A stretch of DNA of 64,000 nt, from assembly GCA_002269645.1 (NCBI GenBank), contig NIVC01000513.1, positions 434,001 to 498,000 of the forward strand, given 5' to 3'. Both the position numbers and the translations under genes were made by a program. Source of the DNA: Macrostomum lignano (taxonomy: Eukaryota). The notes beneath the pieces are model-generated. The model made no database searches and was not told the DNA's origin. It saw nothing but the letters and a program-made list of their open reading frames with translations. This document shows positions 1 to 43,154 of the stretch, one piece after another; position 1 is the first letter of the stretch; the number at the start of each line of letters is the position of its first letter.

Positions 1-489
1 AATCGTTTGCATTCTGGCCTTCGCTCAACACTGAATTCTTCCTCGTCTGGGCTCAGTTAAAGTGAAAATCTCTCTCCCCCACGCGCGCTGCACCCACACA
101 CATACACTCCTCTCTCCCCCACACACGAGACGCCCGCGCCCACAACCTGTGAGAATGGGGTAAGAGATTTTGAGTACACATGCGCGCATTTTTTCATACC
201 ACTCTATACTCTATTCTCGGCAAGCATACTTAAAGGGGAACGCATTTTCTCACATTCTCTCAATGATCAACGTCAGTACAAACTATTCACCGTTGAAATC
301 AACACCCACCCCATCAGAGCATAACAGAGGTAGTTAAGTAGTGGTTTTTGGTAAGAAGACTTATCAATAGTATATGTCTTGTCTCCAACAAACAAAAAGT
401 TGCTCTTTATGTTGGAGGCCAGCAGAACATAGTTCAAAAGATGTTTTGCCATCTTTATTTTCCTATTAAAGCAGGAAAAAGAGAAGGGC

Positions 490-761
490 TCATTTTTTAC
501 AGCCTTGAATCGCTGTTTCAACAGAATAGTTCTTAATCAGTTCTTCTACTTGTCCAGTCGTCACAGTCCGACATATGGGACAGGGAATGCTATTTGCCTC
601 CGCATTGTATATTCGATCAAGACAGTTGCGACAGAAAGTGTGGCCGCAGACTAGAGGTCGGGAGTCGGCGAGCCAATCGAGGCAAACGCTACACTCGAGT
701 CCTTCTGGGATATTCTCTGATCTCGTTCTGTCCAACTCTTTTTGTTTCACACGCCTTTTTT
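490..761 (-). CDS. RING-HC (C3HC4) zinc-finger coding exon, probable E3 ligase; 5' part not identified
   Basis: The ORF 490..954 contains CSVC-x11-CGHTFCRNC-x13-CPIC. The part above 761 reads like intron: a pyrimidine tract ending ttctcag on the minus strand, with the AG at 762-763. Confidence 0.7.
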
Positions 762-1921
762 CTGAGAAATGAGAAAGAAGAGTTGTAAGAAATGAAACAA
801 TGCTATAAATAAAAAAAATAAAAAGTTCCAGACAAATGCACAGATAAAGGTACACCGATTTGAGTCTTACCTCTACTGACTTAAAGAAATCACTGTTTCT
901 TTTCAGAGACGATCCGTTCCAATGTTGGAAAAACTCTAAAGGGATATTTTTCAAATCACTCTCTCGATAAAGTAATTAAACCTTTCTTTTTCCTTGCTTC
1001 AATTTGGATTCAAGTTCTTTTAATCGTTTCTCTTCTTTAGCTGGCGAGGGAATATATGTTAGTAAAGAGGTCTGGGCGGTTTATGCTTCTGGTTTAATAT
1101 AGCCAGCCAGGGTGAGGGTTTTGAGGGTTTGTTCGGTGGGGAGAGAGATTTAGCCGAAGCTAGCTTAATCAGCCAGAGCAACGAGTTTAGATAATGTGAG
1201 GGTTGGGCTGTGGGCGTGGGGGGGATAGAGATTTAGCCGAAGCCAGCTTCGGCTAAAGGATTTTAGGATTTTGGCCTTACCCGAGGCCAGATCGAAGAGG
1301 ATTTTGGCCTCGACTTTTCAAATGCAGCGGTCGCATTTGGTCAGGGCTGAGAATAATAATAGTTAAACCCTTCCCGACTCAAGCGCCTCTCTCTACCCCC
1401 ATATCTTTCAAAAGTCTTCTCAGTTCCTTGTTAGGAGCGCACAAAATAAACCCTGCTCCCGAGCCTCCGCCCTCTCTCCCCATGCACCAGCCCTCTCTTC
1501 CCCAACACCCACCCTCGCCGCCAACCCCCAACCCCAACTTTTCCTTACTAAAATAACAGCTTTAACTAGCTTCCGAGCGATCGATTCCCTCCACCCGCTT
1601 GAAGTCCCATATTGTCTAATCTCCTAAGCATTTCTTTGTCTCAGCGATTTTTCTCCTCTGGAAAATCCTTATACTTAACGTCGTGCCACATGCAGACAGA
1701 CTCTAGCTCGTTCACAGGCTCATGCCCAGGGTTTGGATTATTGTTTTTATCTAACTAAATTTCAAGTGGATTCAAAGGCCCGCAATTCCGGCTACAAAGG
1801 ATTTGTAGCCGGGAATTGTCCAGCCTTTGTTTGGATGAGGAAGCTTTTCAATTAATCCATGTGTGAATCTAAGTTACCACCATAGCGTTGCATTATTTAT
1901 TTAAAATTTTATTTTTGATAA

Positions 1922-2227
1922 ATGGGAGAAGAAAAACAAATCTATCTACTATAGTGACAAATGATTCTTTGTAGGCAAAAATGCAGTCGCCAAACTCGCA
2001 GAACTAAGTAATAAATCAAAACAAACAGTTGAAAGATGGCTCTCTAAGCAAGCAGTCTACAAAGTCTATTTCCCAACAGTAAAATTTGAAAGGCCCCATT
2101 TCAGTATTTATAAACCTAATGAGGCGCACCAAGCAGATCTTCTGTTTCTCCCCAATGACTCAGGCTACAAGTATGTTCCCACAGTTATAGACATTGCCTC
2201 CAGATATTAGGAAGCGAGACCACTTAA
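1922..2227 (+). pseudogene. Maverick/Polinton-type retroviral-like (rve) integrase, N-terminal fragment
   Basis: Manual translation gives IYYSDK*FFVGKNAVAKLAELSNKSKQTVERWLSKQAVYKVYFPTVKFERPHFSIYKPNEAHQADLLFLPNDSGYKYVPTVIDIASRY*EARPL. The PN-x-HQADLLFLP...YKY-x-TV-D-ASRY pattern is typical of Polinton integrases. It has 2 stops and ends at the TTAA at 2224-2227. Confidence 0.75.
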
Positions 2228-5569: not shown

Positions 5570-6345
5570 CTGGGCCGCTGTGATCAAGGAGTAGAACTAG
5601 CGAATGAAGCTAATCTGCAGCGACAAGGCTAAACTACAGCGGCTGCCCACAATGCGAGTCGAGTGAAAAAAGATTAGAACTATTACTATTACAAAATAAT
5701 CATGTTGGTGCAGGTCCGCACAGAGGGCTGAAACTATATCAGCAAACGTGGACAAATATTTGTCTGCTATTATTAGCTCTTCAAATAGTGAATACTCAAT
5801 ACTTTGTGGGAATGGTGGCTTGTATAATTGTTGTCGTCATTTTCTGCGATTATCGGCTCTAATAATGAAAAGCCATTGGTTTTGTGAAACCATCTTTTGA
5901 GTTTCAGTTAAATGAATAAACTGGCAGACAAAAACATCTCTGGAATTAAAAATGGTCTTAATTCATTTGTTCTTGAAATTGAAAAAAGAACTGAGACTGA
6001 ATTACTGTCACTCTGAATGAGTGAGCTGAAATTTTATTAAAACGAGAGTAGCTACCTGCTGCAGCTTGTTGTTGAGTCTGACTGACTGACTTACTCGCGG
6101 GCTGTGGACAGACCGGCCGGCAAGCTGGCTGGCTGGCTGACGGTGGCTGTGAGGGCTGCGGAGCCAATAGGAGGTCGCTCAAAACCACTATAAAAGAAGA
6201 CCCCTGCGCTCCGAAAATCTTCTCAAATCGAAATTCGCGATCAACACACTTATAATGAACAGCAGCATCAACCGCAGCTGGTACGGGATAGGGGGCGGTC
6301 GAGTAGGCCGTGTCGCCTCGCTCTGCACAACTCGGTTTTCGAGTT
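5570..6345 (+). repeat. Copy 1 of a Maverick-family module: 3' end of the PC4-like gene, AT-rich spacer, CCAAT/TATA promoter, 5' end of the MNS-gene
   Basis: Alignable by eye to 16340-17345 and 37915-38960. Shared landmarks are WAAVIKE..KLICSDKA..MRVE*, gaaaccatctttt, ggagccaat, tataaaa and WYGIGGGRVGR. Confidence 0.75.
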
Positions 6346-9669: not shown

Positions 9670-10050
9670 ACATAAATCCCATGTATTCGTATATGTACAT
9701 TAATCCCTATCTATCTCAAATTGTATATGTACATTGTCTACTTCTATGTCTATGCCAAATTTAATATGTACATGTCTACCTGTACAGTGCAAGTGTACAT
9801 GTACATACTTCTATATGTACATGTACACTTGCGCATTATTCTACTTCTATGACAATTTCTAATATGTACAGTGTATACATTAATCCCCAATCTACACGAC
9901 AGCCCCCGCTCTGCGTATTTGAATCGTCAACCCCACAAGATTATATGTACAATTCCAACTCGAAACACTAATTGTTACGTGTACAGCGCAGTATATGCAG
10001 AGGTGGGTCGGAGTGCGCGCGCCAGCTGTACAATCTTATCTACTACTACC
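9670..10050 (-). repeat. Truncated, diverged copy of the Maverick terminal (TIR) segment downstream of the minus-strand pPolB
   Basis: Contains gtacattaatccctatctatctcaaattgta as in the TIR at 16270-16320. Positions 10030-10480 are the reverse complement of 42340-42720. Confidence 0.6.
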
Positions 10051-10469
10051 AAATGAGTACACTAATTGTGTAGCTCACGTCGTATATGTATAAACTATTT
10101 ACAAAGAAGATATATTTACAATAAATCAGTAGCAAATTACAGGAAATAATTAATGTACAACATCACCAGCGAATAAAATATACAGAAAATTTTACATTGT
10201 TTTTCAATAATTTTCGCTTCATCAATAACTTAAAGCAAGTCTGACACGCTAAATATGTACAATAGATTTTTACATTGGCAATTTCACTGCATACGATACA
10301 AAAGGTTTATGTACATTTGTATAGTCGGTCGGTTCCTCTTCATAAACGGTTTTATGTAAATTTGACATGCAAAATATGTAAAACAACAAATAGATTTTAC
10401 TCTTACAAATTTTTACAAGCCAAAATGTTTTAATGTACATTTAATAGTCAGTCAGTCACAAGGGCCGCA

Positions 10470-11810
10470 TTATTTATAACCATAAGGCTGGCTGCACACA
10501 GCCCCGTCGTACACTCGTTTAGTCAGCACGCGCTGAAACGTCTTGTCCATATTGATTGTATGGATGGTGCAAGTCGCCTTGTCGCGCCCGAACTGAAGTT
10601 GCGGCAGCTGCAAAGAGCCGCCGTGTAGCAGCGTGGTGCGCAAGTCCTTACTGCTCTCCCGCATCTCCGGAGTCAGGCGGATGCCCTTGCATTTCAAGAC
10701 CTGGCTCCTCCCCCCAGCCGCATCCTCGACAATGTATGTGTAGAGCTTGGGCCCTCCACTCACAAAGTCGATCATTCGGCTGCCGGCGGGCACCTTATCC
10801 GTCCCGTCCACATTCCGAGGCTCGTGCCATAGGGGCGGCTCCCATTGGCCCTCGGAATGGCGGTTAACGACCCTGTGTGTGTTGGGGGTGGGGGGAAGAA
10901 AATAGGCTATTAGTTCGGATTTCACATGTTAAGAATTGATACGTAATCAATTCTAAAAGAAATTATCCAGCCTGCAATACTTACGAGTCGGTGTCGCAGT
11001 AAATGGCCCGTTCACCGAGACCCTCCAAGGCCTCGTACAGGCGCAGCCGGGCCTGTGTGTCTGCGTAAAACCCGATATGCACATTGGAGTAGCGGAACGG
11101 CCGCTGATTAAAGTAGCGGTGCCGGTACTCCAGCAGCGTAAACTCGCTGCCAATCGGTTCGCAGGCTTTGACTTCGAGATTGGGTTCGGTCAGCCGGGCG
11201 AGCCAGTCCTCGTAACTGGAAACTATTTCTGTCGATGTCAGGTCGTCACGCTGACAGAATTTACCCCAGAGCCTGTGAAAATATTGGTTCCTGTTAGTAA
11301 AAGAAATCGTTTAAAAAACATAATTTATGATAACTTACGAATTCAAAAAAAATTTCGCTACAAAGCGAAGTCCAGGGTTGGGCTCGACTTTGACCAGCGT
11401 GACGCCTTCCTTAGCCTAAAAATCGGCAATTTAGGCGGCCTTGTCTTCATCAGTCATGCCGGAGGAGCCGCTCGACTCGGCCTTCAACTTGAGGAAGGTA
11501 TTGACGTAATCGCTGAACAGGCCATTCCGCTGCTCTGTCCAATAGGCTAGCGAATGCACAACTTGCAGTTAGTAGCCCAACTGGAAGGCCTTCCGCAGCT
11601 CCGGCGTTGCCCAGGTGCCAGTCAGCGCCCGTTCCTCGTCTGAGGGGTGGCAGCCGCTGCACTGCTCCTGCTGCTGCTCTATACAGGTGCGGCAAAGCCC
11701 AAAAAAGAGCTTCTTTTGCACCCTGTATGGCAACAGCGGAATGTGCAAATCCGACGGTGGCAGCACAGTCACTTTGGCAATGCCAAAGTAGCTAGCCAGC
11801 GCGTCAGAAT
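10470..11810 (-). pseudogene. polB: pPolB C-terminal half with two GT-AG introns (11273-11338 and 10873-10984), decayed
   Basis: TVLPPSDLHIPLLP...LFFGLCRTC, GTWATPEL, FLNS^LWGKF, TDS^VVN, VSGGPKLYTY, KCKGI and KRVY...PYGYK*. It has several in-frame stops and is the inverted homolog of 40979-42343. Confidence 0.9.
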
Positions 11811-12529
11811 CGCGTGATCACGCGTGCACAGAATGGACCGAAAAGCTACCATTATTGTTATTTTAGCTTAGCAAAACCTTCCCGCCTTCACTTTCTTCTT
11901 CTTAGTACCCGCAGACACTCATTTTAAAACTCTTATCCACTTGACTTCTTCCTTAGCGTTAGATTAGTTCAAGACTCAAGACAACTAGTCCAAGACAAAA
12001 CAGAACTAAATAGTAATTTAGGCATCTATTTTCCACACCCAGTTATGATTACAATATATATATATGCCACGACAAGACATATATTTCTTATTACAATAAA
12101 AAAACGACTGCTTACTCATCATTCTTCACTTTCTTCTCTCAAACTACGGCGACGTCAAATCGACTTTCTTGATCCCCTTTCTCTTTACTTCTTCTTGCTC
12201 GTCTCTTTGACACACAAACGTCCTGACAACGGTCCCGCTCAACTCAACCTGATCCAGCCCGACCCTGCCCAACCCTGCCCTACACTTCGACTGGCTCGAC
12301 AACGACACCATTCAGACAACTCTAGTGACACCAGCAGCAAATGTACAACATCATTACAAGTGGTGGCCCTGAAAAGGGCCGGTGGATCGTTCAAAACCGC
12401 GGCATCATCACCGACAGCGTCAGTTCTGCCGCGAAAAGGCTACTGAGACCGCCCACCTACTTACCTACACCTCGGTCTCGCGAACCGTCACCGCTGCATT
12501 CGACTGCTGATGATGTCTCCGACAGCAGC

Positions 12530-12835
12530 ACCTGGGGCGCTAGGGACCAGACCTCCACGTGGTGCGCCCTGGGGGAGTCTATATTGTATTATATACAATA
12601 CACTCCGCGAACATGGTCCGAGATACGTTGCCAAGAACCCAGACCCAGACGGAAGTGCCCAGTGATGGACAACACCAGGAGGAAGACCGGCATCACGGAT
12701 ATGGGCGGCTTATGCGCCATGCCCGAGGAATGCCGGGCCCTTTGGAACGAGTTCCGAATACGGGCTAAAATGAAGAGAGAATAGGGCTGTGGTACGGCAA
12801 CGCCAACAACAACAACAACAACAGCAGCACCTGCA
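12530..12835 (+). repeat. Duplicated Maverick-associated segment of unknown coding status, near-identical to 36350-36650 on the minus strand
   Basis: Both locations share cagacctccacgtggtgcgccctgggggagtctatattg...gctaaaatgaagagagaatagggctgtggtacggcaacgccaacaac. Confidence 0.75.
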
Positions 12836-14198
12836 CAAACACCAGACGACCAGGACGACGAAAATCAACGCGATGGCGCCGACACCCAGTCCGAATCCAG
12901 CCTTGGCCGTCCAGGCTACTTGGTCGAGCTCACGGAACTGCTCCCGGCCGAGGACGAGATCTCCCATGTTGATCACTTCCTGAATACTTGCAAAAAACTA
13001 ACCTAAGAAACGCTAGGACTAGCCTATTACTTACCGGTTATATCTGAAAAGAACACTAGACTGACACTAACCTTGATCTCAGCAGCCAGCGATCCTTCTC
13101 CCTCTCTAAATTTTGACTTTAAATACGCCTTTTGGACCTCCAATTTCACTTCTCCTATTATCACCCCACCCCGCACAACAATGTACGCTTTATCGATTCG
13201 ATGCACGTACTTTTCATTCGCAATCCCCGCCACTTATTGTATTACCGCACTCTTGTTTGTTCAATCGCCGTTTCTCACCCCCCCCCCTCGCGCGCGTCTC
13301 TTCACACTTCGCGCAACCCCCCCCCTCCCCAGCCCCCGTTCCGTCTCGCCACTACAACTTTCATCAATGTTTCCACCCTCCATGCGTTACTTATCATAGT
13401 CACACTGCGTTCTCCAATTCTCTCTTGATTCAAGCTCTTCCTTTTGCCATCTTTTCTTCTCTCTTCCTTAATCTCCATCTTCCATTTTTATCGAAAATTT
13501 TTACAAAACACTCAAAAATGTATTACACTCCACCTTGCCCCTCCGTTTTGTTATCTTTTGACGATTTTCGAGAGATCTGAGACCTTCGCTCGTTGAAAAA
13601 GGGGCAATGAAATCTAGCCATTTCCACCGCATGCGTTTTAGCACAAAACTCCATCTATGCACTTTCATCTGCTGATTCGCTAAACGCAGGCTACCAATAG
13701 CAGCCTAACATCGCGCTGTATTTCAATGCACAAAAGTACGAAGCAGTCCTTAGACCTCTCTTGGAACTCCCATTGTACTTCTTACACTCTAGCCAGCCCA
13801 CAGACCCTTTATCCATTCCCTCTACTTCTGACTCATTGGCAAAATAATTAAAGACATTGATAGAAACCAAACCAATCAAATCTAAAGTTCACACCCGATC
13901 GACAAGCAATACAGGCATAGCCTCGAACACCAGATCAGCCGAGAGTACTGATAAGTATCGATATATTCCGTTTCTGACTGCTTCATACTTCGTACTTAAG
14001 AAGCTTACATCCTTTGTATTTACGTGAACTCCATCAGTGATTTAGATTGGAAATATACCATCTCAAGAGAAGGTTCAACACCGCAGGAAAACACAGTCCG
14101 ACTTGCCGCTCATTGTTTAATCTTAGAATACTCGGACGCAGATCCGACAGAGAGCTGAAACAACAATTAAAAGTATTACAAACCATTGCACAGGATGG

Positions 14199-15880
14199 GC
14201 CTTTCGGGGTTGACGTGCTCCCCCAACTGCTCGCGGTCCTGAACGCCCAGTCGCCCGGCCGGGATTTCGGCGTCGGCGTGTATAGCGCCGAGGAGGGCAA
14301 CACATGTGTGTACACCCTGCTTGGTAGCACAGTGCTCAATCTACACCTAATTGGCGAGCACTTCAACACGGTGTGCAAGGTGCCGCCATTTTTCGGTGCC
14401 CGCCGCTATTGTAACCGCTGCCAGCAACCGTATGATTGCATCTCTGCAGAGCACAAGTGCGCCAACACCTGCCCTCAATGCAAAGTGCCCGGCGCGAATT
14501 GCAAGAGCATGTGCGACTACAAGCGCTGCGCTGACTTTGGCCTCAAGTTCTCTGAGGCCAAAGCAGTGCTTTGAGAACCACCGCCGGAAAAACCGGGCCG
14601 GCAGGTCTCGCTGCAGCACCACCCGCGTCTGCCCCAAATGTGGATATGTAGAAGAATTCAGAGTCGGCCAGAAGGAGCCGGAGCACAAGTGCGGCCATGT
14701 CGAGTTCCCACTGTGTAAACAGTATGACGAGGCCGGCTCGCATTTGTGCTTCGTCAAGGCTCCCAAAGTGAAAGATTCGACTATGCCGTACGTGTTCTAC
14801 GATACGGAAAAGTACACGGATGAGGAGAAGCAGCATCACGTGCATCTGGTGACTGCCGTCACGTGTTGCGAGACCTGTTCCGGCCGGGCGTTTCCGCGCG
14901 AGACTTGCCGCCTCTGCAATGGCCTGCATAGCACAGCCAATTGTCTTACTGGCCGCGATCTGGGGGAGGAATTCTCCAATTGCGTCAGCCACTCAGACTG
15001 CGCCTGCCAAATGACAGACTTTGTGGCTGTGGGCCCGACCTCGCTGAATGCTTTTTTCGCCTGGCTAAGCACCACATTCCGAGGCGGCGCTATCGTTGTC
15101 GCGCATAATGCATCAGGCTACGATTCGTTTTTACTGCTTGGCGCTCTACTCAACGGCCTTGCCAAGAAGCGGCCCCAAGTGTTGTTCCAAGGCAGTCGGC
15201 TAATGTGCATGACGGTTGATAAATTGGTGTTTAAAGATTCGCTAAACTATATACCAATTCCGCTTGCGCAATTCCCCAAAGCTCTGGGGCTCGAGGACAC
15301 AAAGCTGGCCAAGGGGACCTTTCCCCACGAGTTCAACAAGCCTGCTAATTGGAACTACGTTGGCCCCTACCCGGCTATTGATTATTATGGCGGCAAGGCA
15401 AACAAGGATTACGGCTCCATCTGTGCTTGGCTGGCCTCGCGACAGGGCGAGTTGTTCAACTTTAATCGGGAATATCTCGATTATTGTTTGAGCGACACGG
15501 TGCTGCTTCGCGAGGGCTGCATCGAGTACAGGGCGATAATTGGCGACATTTGCGACGGCCTGGAACCGTTTGTACAGGCCAATACGATTGCCAGTTTGGC
15601 AATGGCCGTGTTTACCACCCGGTTCATGGAGCCCAACTCGGTCGGCGTGATTGCCCGGCAGACCGACCAGCAATCGTTCAAGGCGCGCAAGTGGCAGACT
15701 TATTTGAATGCCACCGAATTTGGCGGGCGGCTGCGCACCTGCGACTCGACTAACGGCGGCGAGGCGGTCATTCTCGGCCGCAAGATGGACGGCTTTGATG
15801 AGGCCACCAACACTGTCTTGCAGTTTCATGGTTGTTTCTACCATGGCTGCGAGCAGTGCATGCCCGATCAGGATTGGCTT
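14199..15880 (+). pseudogene. polB: pPolB N-terminal Cys-rich region, 3'-5' exonuclease and Vsr-like insertion; one frameshift near 14560; truncated before motif A
   Basis: ExoI YVFYDTE, ExoII VVAHNASGYDSFLL, FKDSLNYIPIPLAQFPKALGL...KGTFPHEFN, ExoIII YCLSDTVLL, TIASLAM and MDGFDEATNTVLQFHGCFYHGC. Confidence 0.92.
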
Positions 15881-16123
15881 GGACATGGTAAAAAAAATTG
15901 CAGATTTTACTATGAATGCATTTTACTTTTCATTTTGCAACTAAAAACTAATTGCTGATTCAAAATTTCAATGCATTATAGCGGAAAACTTTCCCCACCC
16001 ATTTCCTTTTTTTTCTAGCTAGCTGACTATTGTTTTGGCAACCACTCGGAGGAGCGGGCATATTTTGCTGCAAAAAAGGAGAGGGCTGAGTATGAGGCTG
16101 AGCTCCATGATGAGATAGCCGAA
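15880..16123 (+). pseudogene. Intron (15888-16018) and first part of exon 2 of the MNS/Cys-rich gene, interrupted by the TIR element; exon 2 resumes at 23526-23564
   Basis: LADYCFGNHSEERAYFAAKKERAEYEAELHDEIAE plus DLNRLFPGSGLC* is colinear with the intact exon 39527-39670 (LADYCFGSPTEERAYYTAVKERRVYEADLHYETAAELDSLFPGSGLC*). Confidence 0.8.
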
Positions 16124-16338
16124 ACTACGTATCGCGACAAAACTGCCGGGTTTTCAGAATTTTGGCGCAAAAAACGCAATTTAGTCTACTATCTGAAAAT
16201 GAAGTAAGTAGTATATGAAAACGCTATCCTAAGCGTGATAGACATGGCAATATGTACTCATATATGTACATTAATCCCATGTACTGCATTAATCCCTATC
16301 TATCTCAAATTGTACATTGTCCATGTCTATCCCCAATT
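16124..16338 (+). repeat. Left TIR
   Basis: Reverse complement of 23282-23519, with scattered mismatches and one indel. Confidence 0.85.
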
Positions 16339-16484
16339 TAGCTAATCTACAGCAGCGAGAAGGCCAAACTGCAGCAGCTGCCCACAATGCGTGTCGAGTG
16401 AAAATGATTAAGACAATTGCTAAAAAACTTTTGGGTGGGTTGTATGCTTTTGTGCGAATATATGTTTGTATAATAATAACTCTA

Positions 16485-16745
16485 CTGTGCTCTGGCTCCT
16501 TCTGGCCGACTTTCATTTCCTCCAAATATCTGCATTTGGGGCAGACGCGGGTGGAGCTACAGCGCGACCGCCCATCGCCCAATTTGGCCGCGACAAAATT
16601 AACTCTCAATTGGATAATTTTTACTTGTGGGACTTTGTGGGTTGTGTGTTTGCCTTGAGTTGAGATGGGCCTGCTCGCCCCACAAAGCTGAAATAGTCGC
16701 TTCCGCAGCTGGTCGTTTTGATGCCACTCTTCTGTGCAGGATGTT
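16485..16745 (-). pseudogene. Deleted remnants: a (M)ASKRPAAEATISALWG start plus a pPolB Cys-rich piece (GRSRCSSTRVCPKC...GQKEPEH)
   Basis: 16485-16590 is homologous to 14595-14690. 16680-16735 is homologous to the MASKRSAAEAAISALWG start at 36700-36745. Confidence 0.65.
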
Positions 16746-17074
16746 GATGCTGATTAAGTCTTAATTGTATAATTTTTACTTGTGGGAATTTGTTTCTGTG
16801 TTATATCAACTCTTATAATGTGAAAGTGAAAACCATCTTTTTGAATTGAATAAACCGGCACTGATAATAACATCTCTGAAATTAAAAAAATGGTTTTATT
16901 TCATTTGTTTTTAAAATTGAAATAACCTATACTCTGAAATTTTATTATTAAAACCGGCATAGCTCGCTGTTGAGTCAGACTAACTCGCTGGCTGGGGGGG
17001 GGGCTGGGTTGGGGTTTGGGCACGGACAGCAGACTGGCTTGCTTGCTTGGTTGCTTGCTTGCAGGCTGGCGGAG

Positions 17075-17113
17075 CCAATGGGAGGCCTCACAAAATCACT
17101 ACATGTATAAAAA
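17075..17113 (+). promoter_or_regulatory. CCAAT plus TATA promoter of the MNS-gene (also at 6164-6195 and 38699-38730)
   Basis: ggagccaat..tataaaa has similar spacing in three copies and lies about 60-75 bp upstream of a conserved ATG-AA(T/C)-AGC. Confidence 0.65.
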
Positions 17114-17462
17114 CGAAACCCCTGCAGCGCGACTGAAAATCTTTTCAATTTGAAAATTTGCGATCGAACATACACCAGCACACATGAATAGCGGCAACGG
17201 CAGCAGCAGCAGCAGCAGCAGCAGTTTAGAAGTGCCGACACAGTTTGTTGCGGCGGCGGTGGCGCTACGTTGCGGCCGATCTCCCTCAATCTTGTGGTAC
17301 GGGGTTGGGGGTGGTCGAGTAGGCCGGAACCCGCCTCGCTCCACTGCCTAACTAGTTTTAAACGCATCAACAACCATCAGGAACAATTCTGGCCTCGATA
17401 ACAACGGTGGTAACAACGGCAGCAACAGCAGCAACAGCAGTAGCGGCAGCAGCAGCACCACC

Positions 17463-18420
17463 ATGGAACCACCATGGATCAAGCTACGGCACGTGACGTT
17501 CGTTGACGAGGGAGGAAGGCCAGACACGGAGGAGGAATGCAGGAAGATGGAAGAGAGAAGGTTAAGAGCGGCTGGCGACGAAGCAGACATACTGATCTTC
17601 ACGGATGGTTCGGTTGACAAGGAAGGAAAAGGAGGCGGAAGCGTGGTGGTGTTGAGGTATGATAGCGGAGAGGAGATCGAGAAGCGTATGGTGGCCGGCG
17701 GACAGCTTGCGTCCTCGATGCAGGCGGAGCTGTACGCGTTGAAAGAGGCAATCGGGTGGCTGGAGGCTAACAACAACTTGCAAAAAGCTGTGGTTGCGAC
17801 AGACAGCAAGAGCGGGATTCAGGCCATTAAGAGGGCCAGCAGGAACCCGATTGTCTGCAGCATAAGGAAAGCGCTGAGCGAGATGGTAGGACGTGAGATG
17901 GTGTTGCTGTGGATACCGAGCCACTGTGGGATTGTTGGTAATGAAGTGGCGGACGAATGGGCTAACCGGGCGGTCCGGGAGGTGAGCAGCGAAGGAATTG
18001 GAGTCATGGCAAGCACGATGGCGAGGAGGCGGTGTAGAAAGAAGGTGTGGAGGCACGAGAGGATGAGGGAGACGTACGGTAGATCGGAGGGGCCATGGAA
18101 AGAGCCGGAATTCGCGAGCAGGAAGATGTAAGTCAGCTTTAAGCGGTGGCGCATGGGTCACTCTCTGGAGTTGGCGGCGTTTAGGCAGAGGATCGGGCTG
18201 CAGCAGGAAGGGAAGTGCAGGCATTGTGGCATGGAAGAGGAGACCATCGAACACGTGGTGGCCTGCCCGGTCCTAGACAGCTGCTGGAGGGGATGGAGGA
18301 GCGGGATCCTGAGCGAGGTCTGCACGAATGCGGAGGAAGCGCTGAAGGTGTGGGAGTGGTGGAAGAGGAAACCACCAGAAAGCTGCTAGACATCAGCAAC
18401 AACAACAACAACAACAGCAG
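17463..18420 (+). mobile_element. 5'-truncated RNase H-group (I/Ingi-like) non-LTR retrotransposon, 3' end only, with a (CAA)n tail
   Basis: RNase H motifs IFTDGSV, MQAELYAL, TDSKS and GNEVADEWA. They are followed by GHSLELAAFRQRIG..CRHC..EETIEHVVAC, a stop at 18389 and a caa/cag repeat tail. Confidence 0.85.
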
Positions 18421-18429
18421 CAGCAGCAA

Positions 18430-22996: not shown

Positions 22997-23010
<14 letters not shown>
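18430..23010 (+). mobile_element. Near-full-length RNase H-group (I/Ingi-like) LINE: 2xPHD, APE endonuclease, RT, RNase H, CCHC-like end; inactivated
   Basis: PHD CGKC..CAQCHRVFHRAC..WICQPC and a second PHD. APE QWNCDHF/LQESKL/AGDWNAHH/SSPDVT/SDHLPI. RT YRPVSLTS, QAGFR, FDFARAFDKV, LPQGSVLSPLLF, YADD. RNase H IFTDGSV/QAELTAL/SDSKS/GNEAAD. Frameshifts near 19585, 20070, 20330 and 22810, a stop at 21628 and a (CAA)n tail at 22980. Confidence 0.92.
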
Positions 23011-23028
<18 letters not shown>

Positions 23029-23281
23029 TTGACGACGACGATACCGATGACGACTTTCTAGGTTGGTGCGGCGGCAGCTATTGCGGCAACGAATGTTGCC
23101 AGCCTGGCAATGGCTGTGGGCTGTTGGGAGCCAGTCCCTGTGAATATGCCGCAGCCGCCGCCGCCACCGCCGCCGCAAATAATGTAGAGTCGGGCAGCAG
23201 TCTAAATCGGCAGCTGACATTTCTACTGTACATGTAGAAGTAGATTAACGTATATGTAGAAGTGTGTATAGTGTACATATA

Positions 23282-23519
23282 GAATTGGGGATAGACATGG
23301 ACAATGTACAATTTGGGATAGATAGGGATTAATGCAGTACATGGGATTAATGTACATATATGAGTACATGGATTAATGTACATATACGACCATATATTGC
23401 CATGTATATCACGTTTAGGATAGCGTTTTCATATACTACTTACTTCATTTTCAGATAGTAGTTTAATTTGCGTTTTTTGCAAACTCTGAAAACCCGGCAG
23501 TTTTGGCGCGATACGTAGT
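23282..23519 (-). repeat. Right TIR
   Basis: Ends ...CGCGATACGTAGT and is an inverted copy of 16124-16338. Confidence 0.85.
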
Positions 23520-33890: not shown

Positions 33891-33984
33891 GTGAATGCCG
33901 GATAGCTGGGGGAGTACCCACTACCGGGAAGGAAAAGGAAGAAACCCGGGGCAACTACAGGTAGACACCCGAAAAAGTTGATGA

Positions 33985-34510
33985 CCACATAATTGTCAAC
34001 AAGTGGAATAGACATTTTGACAGAGTTTCACGGAGATAGAGCTGTTGCTGCTGCTGAGAGTGTCGGAGCGAGCGAGCGCGAGAGAATTCTGAAAAATCTC
34101 TCAGCAGCGTGGTCCTTTATATACCCGCGAAAGCGACTGTACTCTGAGGAGGTGAGTCTGCGGTCTGCATTTTTCGTTCCTACAGCACTACCGGTTGGTT
34201 AGATACACTCAGATCCAATTACAATCCGTATGAGAACGAAAATGATGGGGTATTTTCAGACCCCATCTTTTCTCTACCAAGTTGGGGTCTGAGTGTACAA
34301 TTGTACACTAATTTGCAAATGCAGTACAAGGGAAAGAGAAATAATGCACACGCGCTCTCTGCTTTTGCAGCATCCCCTTCCTGCAGGGGTATATAAAGGA
34401 AATTGTAGGAGCATCACCAGTCACAGCCGCTTCCGCAGCATCAGCATCAGCCACAATCGCACCAGCATCAGCAGCAGCAGCAGAAGCATGGCATCGAAGC
34501 GTTCAGCCGC
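33985..34510 (+). repeat. Inverted repeat arm (~525 bp) paired with 36715-37245; contains a divergent promoter
   Basis: The ORF track gives near-identical translations for 33993..34202(+) and 37025..37234(-), and for 34293..(+) and 36635..36934(-). Confidence 0.9.
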
Positions 34511-34560
34511 TGAAGCCGCAGGCCGGCTCATCAAGGCAGCAGCAGCAGCAGCAGCAGCAG

Positions 34561-36170: not shown

Positions 36171-36714
36171 TAAGTATTGCATTGGAAAAATTCTTTTAGA
36201 ATTGATTACTAATTATACAGCGTAATTATACAGCCCTATTTTTCTGATTTTAGATTTTTGCAAATGCTAAAGATGAAAAGCATAGTTTTACGCGCGCAGA
36301 GACTCACCTAGCTGTCGTCCCCTCTTTTCGGCCGGAGGCTGATGCTGCTGCTGTGGTTGTTGTTGTTGTTGTTGGCGTTGCCGTACCACAGCCCTATTCT
36401 CTCTTCATTTTAGCCCGTATTCGGAACTCGTTCCAAAGGGCCCGGCATTCCTTGGGCATGGCGCATAAGCCGCCCATATCCGTGATGCCGGTCTTCCTCC
36501 TGGTGTTGTCCATCACTGGGCACTTCCGTCTGGGTCTAGGTTCTTGGCAACGTATCTCGGACCATGTTCGCGGAGTGTATTGTATATAATACAATATAGA
36601 CTCCCCCAGGGCGCACCACGTGGAGGTCTGGACCCTAGCGCCCCTGCTGCTGTGGTTGCTGCTGCTGCCTGGAGGGGCCGGCCTGCCCCCACAAGGCTGA
36701 AATGGCGGCTTCAG

Positions 36715-37245
36715 CGGCTGAACGCTTCGATGCCATGCTTCTGCTGCTGCTGCTGATGCTGGTGCGATTGTGGCTGATGCTGCTGATGCTGCGGAAGCGG
36801 CTGTGACTGGTGATGCTCCTACAATTTCCTTTAAATACCCCTGCAGGAAGGGGATGCTGCAAAAGCAGAGAGCGCGTGTGCATTTTTTCTCTTTCCCTTG
36901 TACTGCATTTGCAAATTAGTGTACAATTGTACACTCAGACCCCAACTTGGTATAGAAAAGATCGGGTCTGATAATACCTCAGCATTTTTGTTCTCATACG
37001 GATTGTAATTGGATCTGAGTGTATCTAACCAACCGGTAGTGCTGTAGGAACGAAAAATGCAGACCGCAGCCTCACCTCCTCAGAGTACAGTCGCTTTCGC
37101 GGGTATATAAACGACCATGCTGCTGAGAGATTTTTCAGAATTCTCTCGCGCTCGCTCGCTCCGACACTCTCAGCAGCAGCAACAGCTCTATCTCCGTGAA
37201 ACTCTGTCAAAATGTCTATTCCACTTGTTGACAATTATGGTGCGC
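36715..37245 (-). repeat. Inverted repeat arm paired with 33985-34510
   Basis: Reverse-complement identity to 33985-34510 is visible throughout. Confidence 0.9.
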
Positions 37246-37996
37246 AAGCCCACATTCGATACTTATCGAGAACTGATTGAGATTCGGCGTTTCTACACTG
37301 ACAAGAACGGCAACTACAAGCACGGCTTCCCGGCGTGTTTCTAACTCGCATCGAGTGGCAGCATCTCAAGAGGGCGTGGCCGATTATTGAGTCTCAGGGA
37401 AATGCTCGACTGCTCTCGTCATAAGTTTCAACTGGGTGAGGGCCGCAATATTCTGGAAGTGAAAAACAACCAGATTTGGCTACATCGCAACAACCCGGGC
37501 CGGGTACGATGAGCGCGAGCGCTGGAAATACTTAATCAGGTTCACCCCTGAATTGTGGATTGCTCTGATGGATGCTGACGTTGACTCGCTGTTTGCCTCG
37601 CAGTCGCCGCCGCCCAAGACGGCTTCGGAGCCATCATCGTGGTTTAACAGCGGCAGCAGCAGCAATGATGGTGACGGCGATGGCAGCCGCCGCCGCAGTG
37701 CTGGCACCCCGCCACCGATTGAACTGCAGCCGCAGGTGAAGAAGCTTTCTACGACTGACGGCGGCAGCGGCAGCGGCAGCGGCAGCAGCTACAAGTGGTG
37801 GCACTCGTATCCCCCGGACTCGACTGAGCTCGAGAGCTGGGCTGCTGGCCTGACTGATGAACAGCTTTTCAAGATCCCGACCCATCAGATTGGGCCCCAC
37901 GAGCCGGCCTTTGCTGCCTGGGCTGCTGTGATCAAGGAGCAGAACAAGCGATTTAAGCTAATCTGCAGTGACAAGGCCACAATGCGTGTCGAGTGA
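37212..37996 (+). pseudogene. Putative tandem PC4-like (ssDNA-binding) protein gene with a low-complexity tail, frameshifted
   Basis: TATA at 37103-37110 and ATG at 37212. Joining frames gives IEIRRFYTDKNGNYK..PGVFLTRIEWQHLK, resembling PC4 DIRE-x-Y-x-DK-x-G..GI-x-LT-x-EQW-x-x-L, then a second unit FQLGEGRNILEV...IRFTPELWIALMD. At least 4 frame changes are needed. Confidence 0.55.
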
Positions 37997-38145
37997 AAAT
38001 GATTAAGACAATTGCTAAAAACTCTTTTTGTGTGGGCTGTATAATCATTGCTTTTTGTGTGTGAATATTCATATTCGTAATGTGTGGGTTGTATAATCAT
38101 TGCTTTTGTGGGAATATATGGTTTGTATAATAATAACTCTACTGT

Positions 38146-38385
38146 AGAACCTTGTTTATATGCTTGAAAACAAGCTATGCAGTGAAGCGAGTGGCGCGGA
38201 CCGGCGGGACATTGATGGTCAACATCATGTTGTCCGCCGTCAGCTTAGATGCGACGAAGTCATCCTCACGCAAGTCATTGCATAGTGCCGAAATTTTTTT
38301 TCGAATGTGGCTCTAATATCGGTGAGTGCTGTGAATGATACCACATACTCATACCCTGCGGCTCTAAATTTAGGCAGGGCATTTG
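38146..38385 (-). pseudogene. polB: Far N-terminal pPolB fragment
   Basis: Manual translation gives LPKFRAAGYEYVVSF..DIRATFEK/ISALCNDLREDDFVASKLTADNMMLTINVPPVRATRFTA*LVFKHINKVLQ, which fits the N-terminal pattern of Polinton polymerases (..LT-x-E-x-VF-x-x-IE-x-VLQ). Confidence 0.65.
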
Positions 38386-38798
38386 ATGTTGATGCTGATT
38401 AACTCTCAATTGTATAATTTTTACTTGTGGGAATCTGTTTCTGTGGTTATATCAACTCTAAAATTGTGAAAACCATCTTTTTGAATAAACTGGAATTGAC
38501 AAATAACATCTCTGGAATAAAAATGGTCTTATTTCATTTGTTTTGAAATTGAAAATAACCGAGACTTTGAAAATTTTATTATTAAAACAGATCGCTATAG
38601 ATCGCTGTTGTTGAGTCAGACTGACTAACTCGCTGGCGGGGCTGGGCTGGGTTTGGGCAGACTTGCTTGTCTGCTTGCTTGCTTGCAGGCTGGCGGAGCC
38701 AATGGGAGGCCTCGCAAAATCACTATAAAAACGAGACCCCTGCGAGACTGAAAATCTTTTCAAATTGAAAATTTGCGATCAACCACACACCAGCACAC

Positions 38799-39670
38799 AT
38801 GAATAGCGGCAACGGCAGCAGCAGCAGTGTAGAAGAGCCGTCGCAGTTAGTTGCGGTGGCTGTAGCACTGCGTTGCGGCCGATCTCCCTCAATCCTGTGG
38901 TGCGGGGTTGGGGGCGGTCGAGTAGGCCGGAACCCGCCACTTCCCTCCACCGCCCGACCAGTTTTAACTCTGGCGTGTAAGTATGACAGCAACAGTAGTA
39001 GCGGCAGCAGCAGCAGCAGCACCAACAGCAGCATCAGTGGCGACAGCAGCAGCAGCAGCATTGACGACGACTTTCAAGGTTGGTGCGGTGGTGGCTACTG
39101 CGGCAATGAATGTTTCCAGCCCGGTAATGGCTGTGGACTGCTGGGGGCCAGCCCCTGTGAACATGCCGCAGTCGCCACCGCTGCCGCCGCGACTATTGAA
39201 GGCAGCAGCAGCAGTAGCAGTCTGAATCAGCAACCGCGGCAACTGAAGAAGAAGACGAGCCGCTGCCGATTGGGCATCAATTTAGCCCCTCGGATGGGGC
39301 TGCAGCAGCACAGTACTGACGCTGCTGCTAGTGAAAAGGCTGCCGCTGCTGACGACGATGGCGAGGCCACATACCAAGAGTTTTTGCGGCGTTGGCGCCG
39401 CGAGCCCGACTTGGACATGGTAAATAATTGCATTTTATCTGAAAACTTTTCATTTTGCAACTAATTGCTGATTCAAAATTTCAATGCATTATAGCGGAAA
39501 ACTTTTCCCACCATTCCCTTTTCTAGCTAGCTGACTATTGTTTTGGTAGCCCCACTGAAGAGCGTGCGTATTACACGGCGGTGAAGGAGCGGCGGGTGTA
39601 TGAGGCTGATTTACATTATGAAACAGCCGCAGAATTGGACAGCCTGTTTCCTGGCTCGGGGCTTTGTTGA
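38799..39670 (+). CDS. Two-exon unknown protein (254 aa; exons 38799-39419 and 39527-39670) with Ser/Ala tracts and a Cys-rich motif
   Basis: CCAAT/TATA promoter and a phase-0 GT-AG intron at 39420-39526. The frame is open after splicing, and both the exon-2 peptide and the Cys motif are conserved in other copies. Confidence 0.7.
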
Positions 39671-39921
39671 CATTTTAATGTTGTTGCTGCACACATTTTT
39701 ATTTTCATGCACCCATAGTATATATCTCAACTCGCTATAAATGTTGTGTATGCACACTTACGTTATCCACATGCACATTCTTTTCAAATAAATTGTTTTG
39801 CAAAATTTAAATATTGCGTTGAGATTTTCACCATTTTTTCGAGTAATGATATTTAGAATGAAAAAACTATAAACCATTCCGTGTGTAAACACTGTGACTG
39901 ATTATAACCCAAAAACTTACC

Positions 39922-40380
39922 ATGGCTGCTTTAAAGGTGTCGCTGCTGACTGAAGGTGCCTGCCCGCCGGCTCGCCAGACGATCGGTTCTGTTGGCTACG
40001 ATCTCTTTGCCTCTGAAGATGCTGTTGTCCGGGCCGGGTCGGTTGCGCAGGTGCCTCTCGGAATTTCAATCCAACCGCCTGATGGGACCTACGCTCGGAT
40101 TGCCGGCCGGTCTGGGCTAGCGTTGCGCAAGTCTATACAAGTGGGCGCCGGCGTGATTGACCCTGACTATACTGGAGAATTGACTGTGGTGATATTTAAT
40201 CATGGCAATGCGGACTGGTTCATAACTCGGGGCTACCGTATCGCTCAATTAGTTTTGGAGCGTGTATTGATTGCTCCCGTAGTTGTAAGGGATCTCTATA
40301 GGGGAAATGGCGAAGAGGAGGCCGCTGGCAGTCACTCAATTCGCGGTGCAGGAGGGTTTGGTAGTACAGGCTATAATTAA
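39922..40380 (+). CDS. dut: Trimeric dUTPase, intact and intronless (152 aa)
   Basis: All five motifs are present: GYDL, GRSGLA, GVIDPDYTGEL, RIAQLV and RGAGGFGSTG. A TATA ctataaa lies at 39867-39873. Confidence 0.95.
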   Translation: MAALKVSLLTEGACPPARQTIGSVGYDLFASEDAVVRAGSVAQVPLGISIQPPDGTYARIAGRSGLALRKSIQVGAGVIDPDYTGELTVVIFNHGNADWFITRGYRIAQLVLERVLIAPVVVRDLYRGNGEEEAAGSHSIRGAGGFGSTGYN

Positions 40381-40604
40381 GTCTCAACTTGCTGTTGTCT
40401 CCTTGCTGTTATTGCTCTCTGTTTCAACTATTGAAATGAAAATATACGCTTTTCCAATGTGAGACTATATGAATACAGTCTTTTTCAATAGAATCTAGAT
40501 TTGTAACTCTACTAAAGGTAGTAGTGTAATCAGCTACATGTAGGTTTTGAATAATTGACATATAAATAGGAATATGTATATAACGTGCTTTGTAAAACTT
40601 GGGT

Positions 40605-40978
40605 GTTGACTCATTTGGATGAGATTGTACATGTAGTAGGGTTTCGAGTTGTAATTTTGGTGCGCGCGCGCTGGCCGTCTGGGGATGACACTGTAGATTA
40701 ATGCACATGTACATATAGAATTGGGGATAGACAATTTGGGATAGGGATTAATGTACATGGGATTAATGTACATATCCATTTTGAGATAGATAGGGATTAA
40801 TGTACATGGAATTAATGTACATATATGAGCACATGGATTATTACAACTACATATTGCCATATATCACGCTTAGGATAGCGTTTTCGTATACTACTTACTT
40901 CATTTTCAGATAGTAGTATAATTTGCGTTTTTTGCGTCAGAATTCTGAAAACCCAGCAGTTTCTGCACATTACGTAGT
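40605..40978 (-). repeat. Maverick TIR/terminal segment ending ...TTACGTAGT, abutting pPolB
   Basis: Homologous to 23282-23519 and 42707-43154. Confidence 0.85.
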
Positions 40979-42343
40979 GACGGTGCAGTCGAAAGACCCA
41001 TACCCGATTGGCCACCCGGTGCAACATCCGACGCCGCAGACGCTTAACTCTTACGCGCTGGCTAGCTACTTTGGCATTGCCAAAGTGACTGTGTTGCCGC
41101 CGTCAGATTTGCACATTCCGCTGCTGCCCAACAGGGTGCAAAAGAAGCTCTTTTTTGGGCTTTGCCGCACCTGTATGGAGCAGCAGTGCAGCGGCTGCGA
41201 CCACTCAGACCAAAAACGGGCGCTGACTGGCACCTGGGCAACGCCGGAGCTGCAAAAGGCCTTCCAGTTGGGCTACCGTCTGCAGGCTGTTCACGCGCTG
41301 GCCTACTGGACAGAGAAGCGGACCGGTCTGTTCGGTGATTATGTAAACGCCTTCCTCAAGATGAAGGCCGAATCGAGCGGCTCCCCCGGCATGTCGGATG
41401 AAGATAAGGCGGCCTACATTGCCGATTTTTACGCCAAGGAGGGTGTCACGCTTGACAAGGTCGAGCCCAACCCAGGACTTCGCTTTGTAGCGAAAATCTT
41501 TTTGAATTCGTAAGTATTCATAAAATTTGTTTTTTTAAATGATTTCTTCTACTAACAGTAGCTTTTCTTTTCACTACACAGGCTCTGGGGCAAATTTTGT
41601 CAGCGTGACGACCTGACCTCGACTGAGATTGTGTCCAGCTACGAGGACTGGCTCGCCCGGCTGACCGACCCCAACCTCAAAGTCAAGGCCTGCGAACCGA
41701 TTGGCAGCGAGTTTATGCTGCTAGAGTACCGGCACCGTTACTTTAATCAGCGGCCATTCAGGTACTCCAATGTGCCAATCGGAGTCTTTACGACCACGCA
41801 GGCCCAGCTGCGCCTGTACGAGGCATTGGAGGGGCTCGGCGAACGGGCCATTTACTGCGACACTGACTCGTAAGTATTGCATTGGAAAAATTCTTTTAGA
41901 ATTGAATAGTTAGCATGTGGAACTAATTATTTCGTTTTTCTCTCCCACACAGGGTCGTTTACCGGCATTCCGAGGGCCAATGGGAGCCGCCCCATGGCAC
42001 GAGCCTCGGAATGTGGACCAATGAGGTGCCCGCAGGCAGCCGGATGACCGACTTTGTAAGTGGGGGGGCCAAGCTCTACACTTACATTGTCGAGGATGCT
42101 GCTGGTGTCCGCAGCCAAGTCCTGAAATGCAAGGGCATCCGCCTGACTCCGGAGATTCGGGAGCGTAGCGACGACTTGCGCAACACCCTGCTACACGGCG
42201 GCTCTCTGCAGCTGCCGCAGTTTCAGTTCAGGCGCGACAAGGCGTCTTGTATTATACACACGATCAGTATGGACAAGACGTTTCAGCGCGTCCTGACGAA
42301 ACGGATGTACGGGGCCTGCAGCAGGCCTTATGGCTATAAATAA
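40979..42343 (+). CDS. polB: pPolB C-terminal half; three exons (40979-41509, 41582-41869, 41953-42343), open after splicing but 5'-truncated at motif A
   Basis: TVQSKDPYPIGHP, LCRTC, GTWATPEL, KIFLNS^LWGKFCQR, YCDTDS^VVY, VSGGAKLYTY, KCKGI, KRMY..PYGYK*. Both introns are gtaagt...cacag and phase 2. Confidence 0.93.
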
Positions 42344-42706
42344 TGGTGACTGACAATTCAATGTACATTTTGCATTATAAAATTAGTAAAATCTATTTGT
42401 TGTACATAATTTGCATGTTAAAGTAATGAACAGTTACAGACTACTATACAAATGTACATAAAGCATTTTTGTATTGTATGCGGCGAAATTGCCAATGTAA
42501 AAATCTATTGTACATATTTTGCGTGTCAAACTTGTTTAAAATCATTTATGAAGAGAAAATTATTGAAAAAAACAATGTAAATTTTTTGTGTATATTTTAT
42601 TTGCTGGTAATGTTGTATATAAATTATTTCCTGTAATATGCTACTGATTTAATGTAAATATATCTTCTTTGTAAATAGTTTATATACGATGTGAGCTGTA
42701 CAATTA

Positions 42707-43154
42707 GTTGAGTCATTTGGATGAGATTGTACAACTGTACATGTAGTAGGGTTTCGAGTTGTAATTTTGGTGCGCGCGCGCTGGCCGTCTGGGGATGACA
42801 CTGTACATGTGGATTAATGCACATACTGCGTACATATAGAATTGGGGATAGACATAGACAATTTGGGATAGGGATTAATGTACATGGAATTAATGTACAT
42901 ATCCATTTTGAGATAGTAAGGATTAATGTACATGGAATTAATGTACATATCCATTTTGAGATAGTAAGGATTAATGTACATGGAATTAATGTACATATAT
43001 GAGCACATGGATTATTACAACTACATATTGCCATATATCACGCTTAGGATAGAGTTTTCGTATACTACTTACTTCATTTTCAGATAGTAGTATAATTTGC
43101 GTTTTTTGCGTCAAATCTGCCTAATAACTTGGCAGTTTCTGCACGATATGTAGT
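42707..43154 (-). repeat. Maverick TIR/terminal segment ending ...ATATGTAGT; right boundary of the TE nest
   Basis: Homologous to 40605-40978, with an internal tandem expansion of the gtacatggaattaatgtacatatccattttgagatagtaaggattaat unit. Confidence 0.85.

Follow-up and report, generated by a model that had tools for sequence, protein, structure and literature searches.

The first 43,154 bases of a 64,000-nucleotide stretch of the Macrostomum lignano genome (assembly GCA_002269645.1, contig NIVC01000513.1, positions 434,001 to 498,000 of the forward strand; hereafter the window) hold the nested remains of an undescribed Maverick-like family whose capsid module is missing here. An earlier note on this DNA, made from its letters, had left two readings: that the capsid genes were deleted locally, or that the family is a capsid-less replicon. 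Neither stands as put. Full copies of the element elsewhere in the genome, which we call segment 1, encode a DNA polymerase B of the protein-primed type (pPolB) and lack the capsid genes throughout, and another element, segment 2, whose ends belong to that family too, carries integrase (INT), major capsid protein (MCP), penton, protease, and ATPase. Because the gene sets are complementary and the 31-base ends belong to one family, the two are likely segments of one Maverick, a virus-like transposon, and we put the probability that they are mutually dependent halves of a bipartite Maverick at about 0.84. Complementation between the two, virions, and free linear DNA are what we infer for the pair.

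The Polymerase Segment

Natural copies from the same genome served as the reference for the window (blastn), and gene counts rest on individual natural copies. The genome has at least 124 matches to the last pPolB exon and at least 119 to the exonuclease exon. The segment-1 polymerases fall mainly into two lineages, A at about 91%–96% amino acid identity to the window and B at about 65%. Among 45 two-ended copies examined, 41 have an exact 6-bp target duplication (among them are two in simple repeats and two allelic duplicates); of the other four, one shows a duplication after a one-base boundary shift, one was truncated on retrieval, and two have inverted flanks. The pPolB motif that we tested is present in 30 of the 45, with a median length of 9.5 kb and 26 of the 30 falling between 8.4 and 10.9 kb; the larger copies inspected contain nested insertions. 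The ends read 5'-ACTACG in lineage A and ACTACT in lineage B.

From Mavericks resident in the genome we built profiles of five genes (integrase, capsid, ATPase, penton, protease), which were positive in three control Mavericks, with penton and protease weak or missed in some. They found none of the five genes in 28 segment-1 copies or in 33 further loci (0/28 and 0/33). With tblastn negative as well, the idea of an integrase or capsid gene hidden within segment 1 was rejected for the copies and loci compared. Outside pPolB, only a PC4-like gene is conserved between lineages A and B (tblastx); it occurs in 17 of 20 B loci and in one of 13 other loci. A dUTPase is found in a minority of lineage-A copies. 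The homologue search with the PC4-like gene gave no match, and PC4 clusters of the Atlas at 0.79–0.81 are a lead only. Long ORFs (open reading frames) in two copies, C126 and C2132, were considered as cargo and rejected, as they read like inserted DNA transposons.

The polymerase matches PF03175 and combines a Vsr motif, the Cys and His of a vOTU-like region, and exonuclease and polymerase motifs. Its N-terminal domains were assigned by motif rather than by structural match, with names after the accessible portions of PMC11161782 and bioRxiv 2023.08.22.554363. The best Foldseek match of its predicted model is the phi29 polymerase (E 1.5e-9). The median ratio of nonsynonymous to synonymous substitution (dN/dS) in the large exon is 0.066 in lineage A (28 pairs) and 0.064 in lineage B (nine pairs), and a pair of lineage-B copies from different sites shows no difference across 1299 bases. 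A quick tree joins lineages A and B in a single clade (SH-aLRT 100) within the Vsr-type pPolBs, away from the polymerases of five resident Mavericks, which all lack the Vsr motif (0/5). The closest outside pPolBs share 31%–37% identity, and those closest relatives that can be read in context lie in one-piece Mavericks (L117, L118, L175, L203). The last of these, a 13.7-kb metagenomic contig, is a one-piece Vsr-type Maverick with 502-bp terminal inverted repeats (TIRs); its contig ends, ACCTAAC, are maybe clipped. Core genes are lacking in 11 of 22 metagenomic loci of at least 8 kb with a related pPolB, all of them partial contigs and none with paired TIRs, so these loci give no evidence of similar integrase-less elements elsewhere. 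A single-protein scan of viral contigs gave no match.

The Integrase and Capsid Segment

Since segment 1 has 6-bp duplications and no integrase of its own, a helper integrase was sought by a genome search with an outside integrase, from which ten loci were fetched. A canonical Maverick of the C166 type had been considered as the supplier and was dropped, as neither its AGTAG ends nor those of the other full families read match and segment 2 was found. The first segment-2 copy (G000:C181:646907-657417) is 10.5 kb long with a 6-bp duplication, and its first 31 bases are those of the lineage-B segment-1 copies C211 and C845; segment-2 copies measure about 8–11 kb. Its ORFs, all on one strand, include an ATPase, a protease, the MCP, a penton-like ORF, an integrase, a TBP-like ORF, and a Fic ORF. 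The MCP has at least 96 genome matches (95 of 448 candidates were scored), including 15 full-length at 98%–100% identity and 18 near full-length at 86%–90%, plus fragments. Relatives of the MCP at 80%–81% are also present on short contigs (P0121–P0123). Ten further copies were fetched, four near-identical ones with B-type ends and six at 86%–88% with A-type ends. All ten have INT and MCP, and nine have ATPase and protease. None of the 11 copies contains pPolB, and neither pPolB, the PC4-like gene, nor dUTPase was found in the 20-kb loci around the ten. The 6-bp duplication is present at all nine two-ended copies (the first included).

The integrase matches PF00665 (rve; E 1.8e-9, over the cut-off), and its D-D-E residues were read from the sequence. 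No significant Pfam match was obtained for MCP, ATPase, protease, or penton. The predicted MCP model (pLDDT 87) matches PBCV-1 VP54 (Foldseek E 2.6e-18) and the mavirus MCP (E 8e-16), and the protein models as a double jelly roll. The resident-Maverick profiles recognize the ATPase (E 1.5e-14) and the protease (E 2.3e-11); the penton is putative, assigned by position and sequence likeness only and without a score on the penton profile. Values of dN/dS are 0–0.15 for MCP and 0.06–0.21 for INT, and several copies carry frameshifts or stops. In trees, INT and MCP form a branch of their own outside the resident families. The TBP-like ORF of the first copy (L280–L281) is slightly below the Pfam cut-off (E 9.5e-5), and its Fic-domain ORF scores E 7e-14; the Fic ORF was found in lineage B and not in the four mapped lineage-A segment-2 copies.

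A Shared and Hypervariable End

DNA similarity between the segments stops at base 31, past which each segment has its own TIR body in both lineages. Within the TIR, copies diverge at bases 9–27 by 38% in lineage A and 51% in lineage B, against only 3%–13% at bases 35–110, and because this block is hypervariable, identity within it is informative. Compared with the ends of segment 1 and its derivatives, three of 18 fetched segment-2 ends are exact, 14 differ by one to four bases, and one differs by five. At least six exact 31-base types of lineage A occur on both segments (genome-wide lists, read by eye), and lineage-A ends number 70 by the segment-1 pattern and 67 by the segment-2 pattern, with no hits for reversed-pattern controls. 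Within a single copy both ends generally agree (21 of 23 in A, 13 of 21 in B). The block shows a mosaic make-up (four-gamete pairs 44/105 and 101/190), and six overlapping 11-mers in it are common to A and B. We rejected an internal source of donor sequence for the block, as each element gave only 0–6 scattered 11-mer matches. Both segments divide into A and B, at a comparable and near-saturated synonymous divergence (dS) of 2.3–3.0 for pPolB in the pairs reported and 1.9–2.3 for MCP. MCP and pPolB were never within 20 kb of each other on shared contigs in the match lists (nearest 47 kb, by eye), and no single copy uniting both gene sets was seen among the loci compared. Together the segments amount to about 20 kb; the range given for vertebrate Mavericks in the accessible part of PMC8097293 is 12.7–24.6 kb.

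Two further kinds of element bear the same ends. Apparently noncoding palindromes of 6.6–9.9 kb, with 6-bp duplications, were found at C125, C657, C1299, C1526, C261, and C1197 (L078, L084, L086, L087, L094, L095), and are likely parasites of the segment pair, held near segment length. A 4.7-kb span (G000:C1438:113262-117991) has a segment-1-type end and a dUTPase on one side and a segment-2-type end on the other, and is possibly an inter-segment recombinant.

Five Introns in the Polymerase Gene

The pPolB gene of segment 1 has five introns, whose positions agree between lineages A and B and whose lengths vary. All splice sites that could be located are GT...AG (58 of 65 in 13 copies, one checked by hand), the other seven having been missed or mis-anchored by the script through motif mismatch. 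In sequencing run X18, whose identity as RNA is a guess, four contigs stop at 3219, 3666, 4294, and 6243 of L001, at or no more than two bases from predicted splice sites and with more letters beyond, and contig depth is 40.7 on both flanks of one intron. There is no splice joint among the matches listed for X18, and another of the four runs compared, X11, behaved like DNA. We take the X18 pattern as a hint of splicing from a single run. As judged from sequence comparison, the five introns were likely gained within this lineage, because related pPolBs in metagenomes have long uninterrupted ORFs (a plus-strand ORF of at least 900 amino acids in 41 of 80 loci) and vertebrate Mavericks, when intact, are intronless according to the accessible text of PMC8097293. 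The intronless state characteristic of Maverick genes does not hold for the segment-1 pPolB, whose introns are spliceosomal in type.

A Model for the Pair

If the two elements are halves of one Maverick, a division of labor can be proposed on the pattern of known Mavericks. Replication would fall to the segment-1 pPolB, whose N-terminal part includes the putative terminal-protein region and the vOTU-like region and which would prime on the terminal bases of any linear DNA with an ACTAC end and copy it; the segment-2 integrase would insert any ACTAC-ended DNA, making a 6-bp duplication; and the capsid module of segment 2 would enclose a single molecule of roughly 10 kb in each particle, which fits the 6–11 kb clustering of both segments and of the noncoding palindromes and is suggestive only. 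The palindromes, having the same ends, would be parasites of both segments. Pairing of ends and template switching during joint replication may also take place, and the identity of ends within a copy, the mosaic blocks, and the possible C1438 hybrid would follow from it. Our best guess is that end variation is driven by escape from the palindromic parasites.

A fuller version of this model, to which we give slightly less than even odds, would have two molecules of about 10 kb, each packaged and integrating alone, as the genome of a segmented double-jelly-roll dsDNA virus. The 31-base end would hold the segments together, its 19-base block, swapped between them, would serve as a partner-recognition code under pressure from the noncoding palindromic parasites, and the polymerase segment would have become host-like through the gain of five introns. 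We know of no segmented double-jelly-roll virus.

Resident Mavericks and Alternative Explanations

The genome contains several canonical AGTAG-ended Maverick families, one with hundreds of integrase candidates; those of the C166 type are 15–17 kb long and have their own polymerase and capsid module. All full resident families with readable ends start AGTAG, and neither segment nests within a resident family in trees. When 11-mers from the ACTAC ends were sought in five resident Mavericks, each gave 0–4 scattered internal matches and none at a terminus. A separate element of about 11.9 kb at C494 (L278–L279) has AGTAGT ends, integrase, capsid, protease, and ATPase, and no detectable pPolB; its integrase family includes several near-identical copies, and it may be half of another pair. 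Another Maverick (G000:C4072:942-24134, L021–L023) has only an N-terminal pPolB fragment, together with a TBP-like ORF and a dUTPase of a type with about 30 near-identical copies, and a lineage-B segment-1 copy is inserted in its capsid gene.

The summed size and gene set of the two segments equal those of a normal Maverick, so that both could be deletion derivatives, and each a defective passenger, of a monopartite master of about 20 kb; such a master might be exogenous or extrachromosomal, or the assembly, which is fragmented into 5269 contigs, might have missed it. The closest readable pPolB relatives are in one-piece Mavericks. We nevertheless regard such a master as improbable: MCP and pPolB do not meet within 20 kb on any contig shared by the match lists, none of the ten 20-kb segment-2 loci contains this pPolB, the TIR bodies of the two segments are distinct past base 31 in A as well as in B, and both halves are under purifying selection within each lineage, which is not expected of passengers. 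The elements might instead be independent parasites of AGTAG Mavericks, segment 1 borrowing an integrase and segment 2 a polymerase, with the shared ends incidental. Full Maverick families are many, B-type segment-1 copies do lie inside full Mavericks (C4072/C2932 and C1412), and C494 demonstrates that pPolB-less AGTAGT elements exist. We think this unlikely: the two elements share exact hypervariable end types, their ACTAC ends are unlike those of every full family read, 11-mers from these ends are at none of the termini of five resident Mavericks, and lineages A and B are matched across both elements. Hardly credible, finally, is the proposal of the earlier note in its original form, a replicon without a capsid that would have an integrase of its own and an unusual set of accessory genes. 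Segment 1 by itself does lack capsid genes, and nine capsid-less Polintons are on record in the accessible part of PMC4028283. The integrase piece from which that replicon was assembled comes from another family, the Cys-rich piece is a retroposed insert, and a capsid module with the same ends exists on segment 2.

Several observations weigh against the bipartite reading itself. The PC4-like and dUTPase genes are missing from most of the lineage-A copies fetched, and the copies fetched are a minority of the matches listed. Trees leave the segment-2 INT and MCP in unresolved forks relative to the partners of segment-1 relatives, and because their wider position is not settled, fission of one ancestor is inferred rather than tree-based. 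The two patterns behind the counts of 70 and 67 ends differ in strictness, and the 70 include noncoding derivatives. Ends are unread or unsure for Mavericks of the C2285, C878, C130, C906, C84, and C890 types. Other Maverick integrases are plentiful (613 and 2305 first-look candidates, of which 150 and 110 were scored), so another helper may exist, and since C494 exists, loss of pPolB alone is not unique to the segment pair.

Composition of the Window

Features of the window are collected in Table 1. The family accounts for 15,362 of bases 1..43154 when compared with natural copies. Much of the remainder is a piggyBac-like element, long interspersed nuclear elements (LINEs; both by Pfam), and a gypsy-like gag/protease stretch that was read from ORFs and has no Pfam match. 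The pieces jointly span 9147 of the 10,443 bases of natural copy C1263; the larger part of the nest does not belong to the family. The pPolB pieces described earlier are all real, and they do cover most of the protein (987 of 1158 residues of the database model P0002, tblastn). None of them includes residues 822–896 (tblastn), a span running from the last part of the Vsr domain to the motif-A aspartate, so the pieces thought to run from motif A begin after it. The far N-terminal piece is no separate pPolB copy; it is a relic found at the same arm position in C1263. The dUTPase is present as described, as is the PC4-like gene, although the latter is broken in the window.

The five TIR pieces, in both orientations, are likewise confirmed, and three have a readable terminus (16124, 23519, and 40978), with 31-base ends holding the hypervariable block at 40948-40978, 16124-16154, and 23489-23519. 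The end at 40978 is like a segment-2 end at 30 of 31 bases. No window match was found to the 14 ORFs of segment 2, and the shared end is the sole segment-2 DNA in the window. Absence of capsid, penton, ATPase, and protease genes is borne out for positions 1–44000, where the profiles that work in the control Mavericks gave only one chance match (E 0.46). Grouping of pieces with unrelated elements, which the earlier note had named as refuting its view, is seen in part, for the integrase and Cys-rich pieces. The integrase piece matches no full copy of the family and belongs to a canonical 15–17 kb AGTAG Maverick. A 0.3-kb retroposed insert gives rise to the supposed Cys-rich gene and small membrane ORFs; it has a (CAA)n tail, is flanked by a target duplication, and has 28 genome matches, and empty sites for it were found at C1884 and C1272.

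The nested copy at 16124..23519 interrupts an arm of another copy, and is itself occupied by a LINE from about 17352 to 22970. The pPolB gene of the next copy was the insertion site of the accessory arm ending at 40978, whose terminus directly abuts pPolB coding sequence, and a decayed TIR closes that next copy at 43154. The window was formed as copies of the family inserted into one another, one nested insert still retaining its duplication; insertions of LINE, piggyBac, and gypsy elements came afterwards, as did deletions. The pPolB piece at 14173..15874 has a median dN/dS of 0.08 against lineage-A copies.

Table 1. Features of positions 1 to 43,154 of the window and the evidence for each
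Position	Strand	Feature	Evidence
1965..2207	+	Integrase fragment of another family	Canonical AGTAG-ended Maverick
about 2850-4435		piggyBac-like transposase	Pfam
5570..6228		Two short segment-1 accessory-arm fragments	blastn 86% to C1263, 71% to C157
8896..9660	+	pPolB fragment with the last part of the putative terminal-protein region, the vOTU-like region (intron i1), and the first Cys-rich part	pPolB match 8897-9660; tblastn 75%–85% to P0002 residues 172–385; blastn 83% to C1263
9693..10065		TIR piece without terminus	blastn 83% to C2757 TIR
10043..11812	-	pPolB 3' part after motif A to stop, introns i3 and i4, arm towards TIR	pPolB coding match 10473-11811
12522..12835; second copy 36343-36653		0.3-kb retroposed insert, not of this family
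14173..15874	+	pPolB vOTU/Cys-rich/exonuclease/Vsr part; frameshift near 14550, cut off inside Vsr	PF03175 E 3.7e-11; 93% amino acid identity to P0002 385–821
15878..16123		Arm fragment, resuming at 23520-23719 past nested insert	Contiguous matches to C2132 7820-8042 and 8037-8235
16124..23519		Copy of the family, nested and with internal deletion, keeping both termini (5'-ACTACGTA)	6-bp target duplication GCCGAA
16487-16573	-	pPolB piece
17352-22815, 23838-25920, 34293-35201		LINE ORFs	Pfam
33984..34560		Arm fragment, noncoding region upstream of PC4-like gene	blastn 84%–90% to C1263 and C157
35181..36374	+	Arm piece with a 3' pPolB fragment (intron i3; 35473-36165)
36644..40978	+	Accessory arm of one copy, TIR ending at 40978	blastn 85%–93% to C1263, C2132
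about 37212-37996		Broken PC4-like gene in accessory arm	Natural-copy homologue: PF02229 E 1e-5
38142-38386	-	Internal relic of pPolB N-terminus in accessory arm
39922-40377		dUTPase in accessory arm	Pfam E 4.7e-31
40979..43154	+	3' part of pPolB down to the stop at 42343, with motifs B and C and two introns (i3, i4)	pPolB match 40995-42343; blastn 88% to C2757

Three other observations concern the window. Positions 1-6199 are duplicated about 20 kb upstream (G000:C513:414661-420366) at 95%–98% identity. A RING-finger ORF at 490-975 on the minus strand (Pfam E 1.8e-10) lies between left-end pieces of a canonical Maverick and was not seen in the C166 copy. At 52973-58993 is an exon-split host gene, its introns filled with tandem repeats, which reads like a WD40-repeat protein.

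Comparison with Known Systems

The pair shares most with the Vsr-type Mavericks/Polintons of marine nematodes and molluscs, as far as these are described in the accessible part of bioRxiv 2023.08.22.554363: the Vsr-insert pPolB, rve integrase, double-jelly-roll MCP, penton, protease, ATPase, TIRs, and 6-bp duplication. The difference is that the gene set here is divided between two elements. In the definition given in the available text of PMC5499653, a Maverick unites pPolB and integrase in one element, and this is not so for either segment. Of the features by which Mavericks are known, the protein-primed polymerase is on segment 1, the rve integrase on segment 2 only, and the 6-bp duplication on both, and segment 2 has the double-jelly-roll MCP, the putative penton, the packaging ATPase, and the adenain-like protease. 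The Maverick end motif listed in the part of PMC8097293 available to us is (AGT)2, (AG)3, or (AC)3A, unlike the ACTACG and ACTACT of the two lineages.

Two complementary segments with matching termini, as expected of a bipartite virus, are found here, and in this the pair resembles the bidnaviruses (Bombyx mori bidensovirus) and the Drosophila Vesanto virus, which have segments with pPolB on one of them and matching termini. Those viruses have ssDNA and parvovirus-type capsids, and no integrase is described for them in the accessible portions of PMC8502044, PMC4061559, and PMC8363768. Here both segments integrate with a 6-bp duplication, and the capsid is a double jelly roll rather than the parvovirus type of the Bidnaviridae. 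Core genes are also partly missing from the nine capsid-less Polintons and from Ca_PLV1, an integrated polinton-like virus without integrase for which supply in trans has been suggested (PMC11296320, in part); segment 1 lacks integrase and capsid both, and a complementary partner with shared ends is not described for the others in those parts of the sources. Like a polinton-derived pPolB replicon that lacks the capsid module, segment 1 is a pPolB replicon with that module lost; it differs in being integrated with integrase-type duplications, in its nuclear introns, and in having a capsid-encoding partner. Its integrated copies with 6-bp duplications also set it apart from linear pPolB plasmids, which do not integrate. 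Full-text searches, which did not cover Repbase or subscription journals, turned up no paper describing a bipartite Maverick, nor any about this host's Mavericks, and no precedent appears in the accessible parts of PMC12166617, PMC12220804, PMC5718144, PMC6431247, PMC12567637, PMC11721093, and bioRxiv 2026.10.13.758929.

Implications

A Maverick pair on separately integrating molecules implies that polymerase and integrase can be supplied in trans, and it narrows the shared recognition site of the two enzymes to 31 bases. With a site this short, models of Maverick replication and integration become testable with short oligonucleotides. The polymerase gene with introns and the hypervariable block at the ends are further surprises. 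"Degenerate" Mavericks of other genomes with pPolB only or capsid genes only may be halves of such pairs. If the bipartite reading is true, it would represent a natural genome fission in a dsDNA virus lineage, with young copies in a laboratory model animal, and would bear on the rarity of multipartite genomes among animal viruses.

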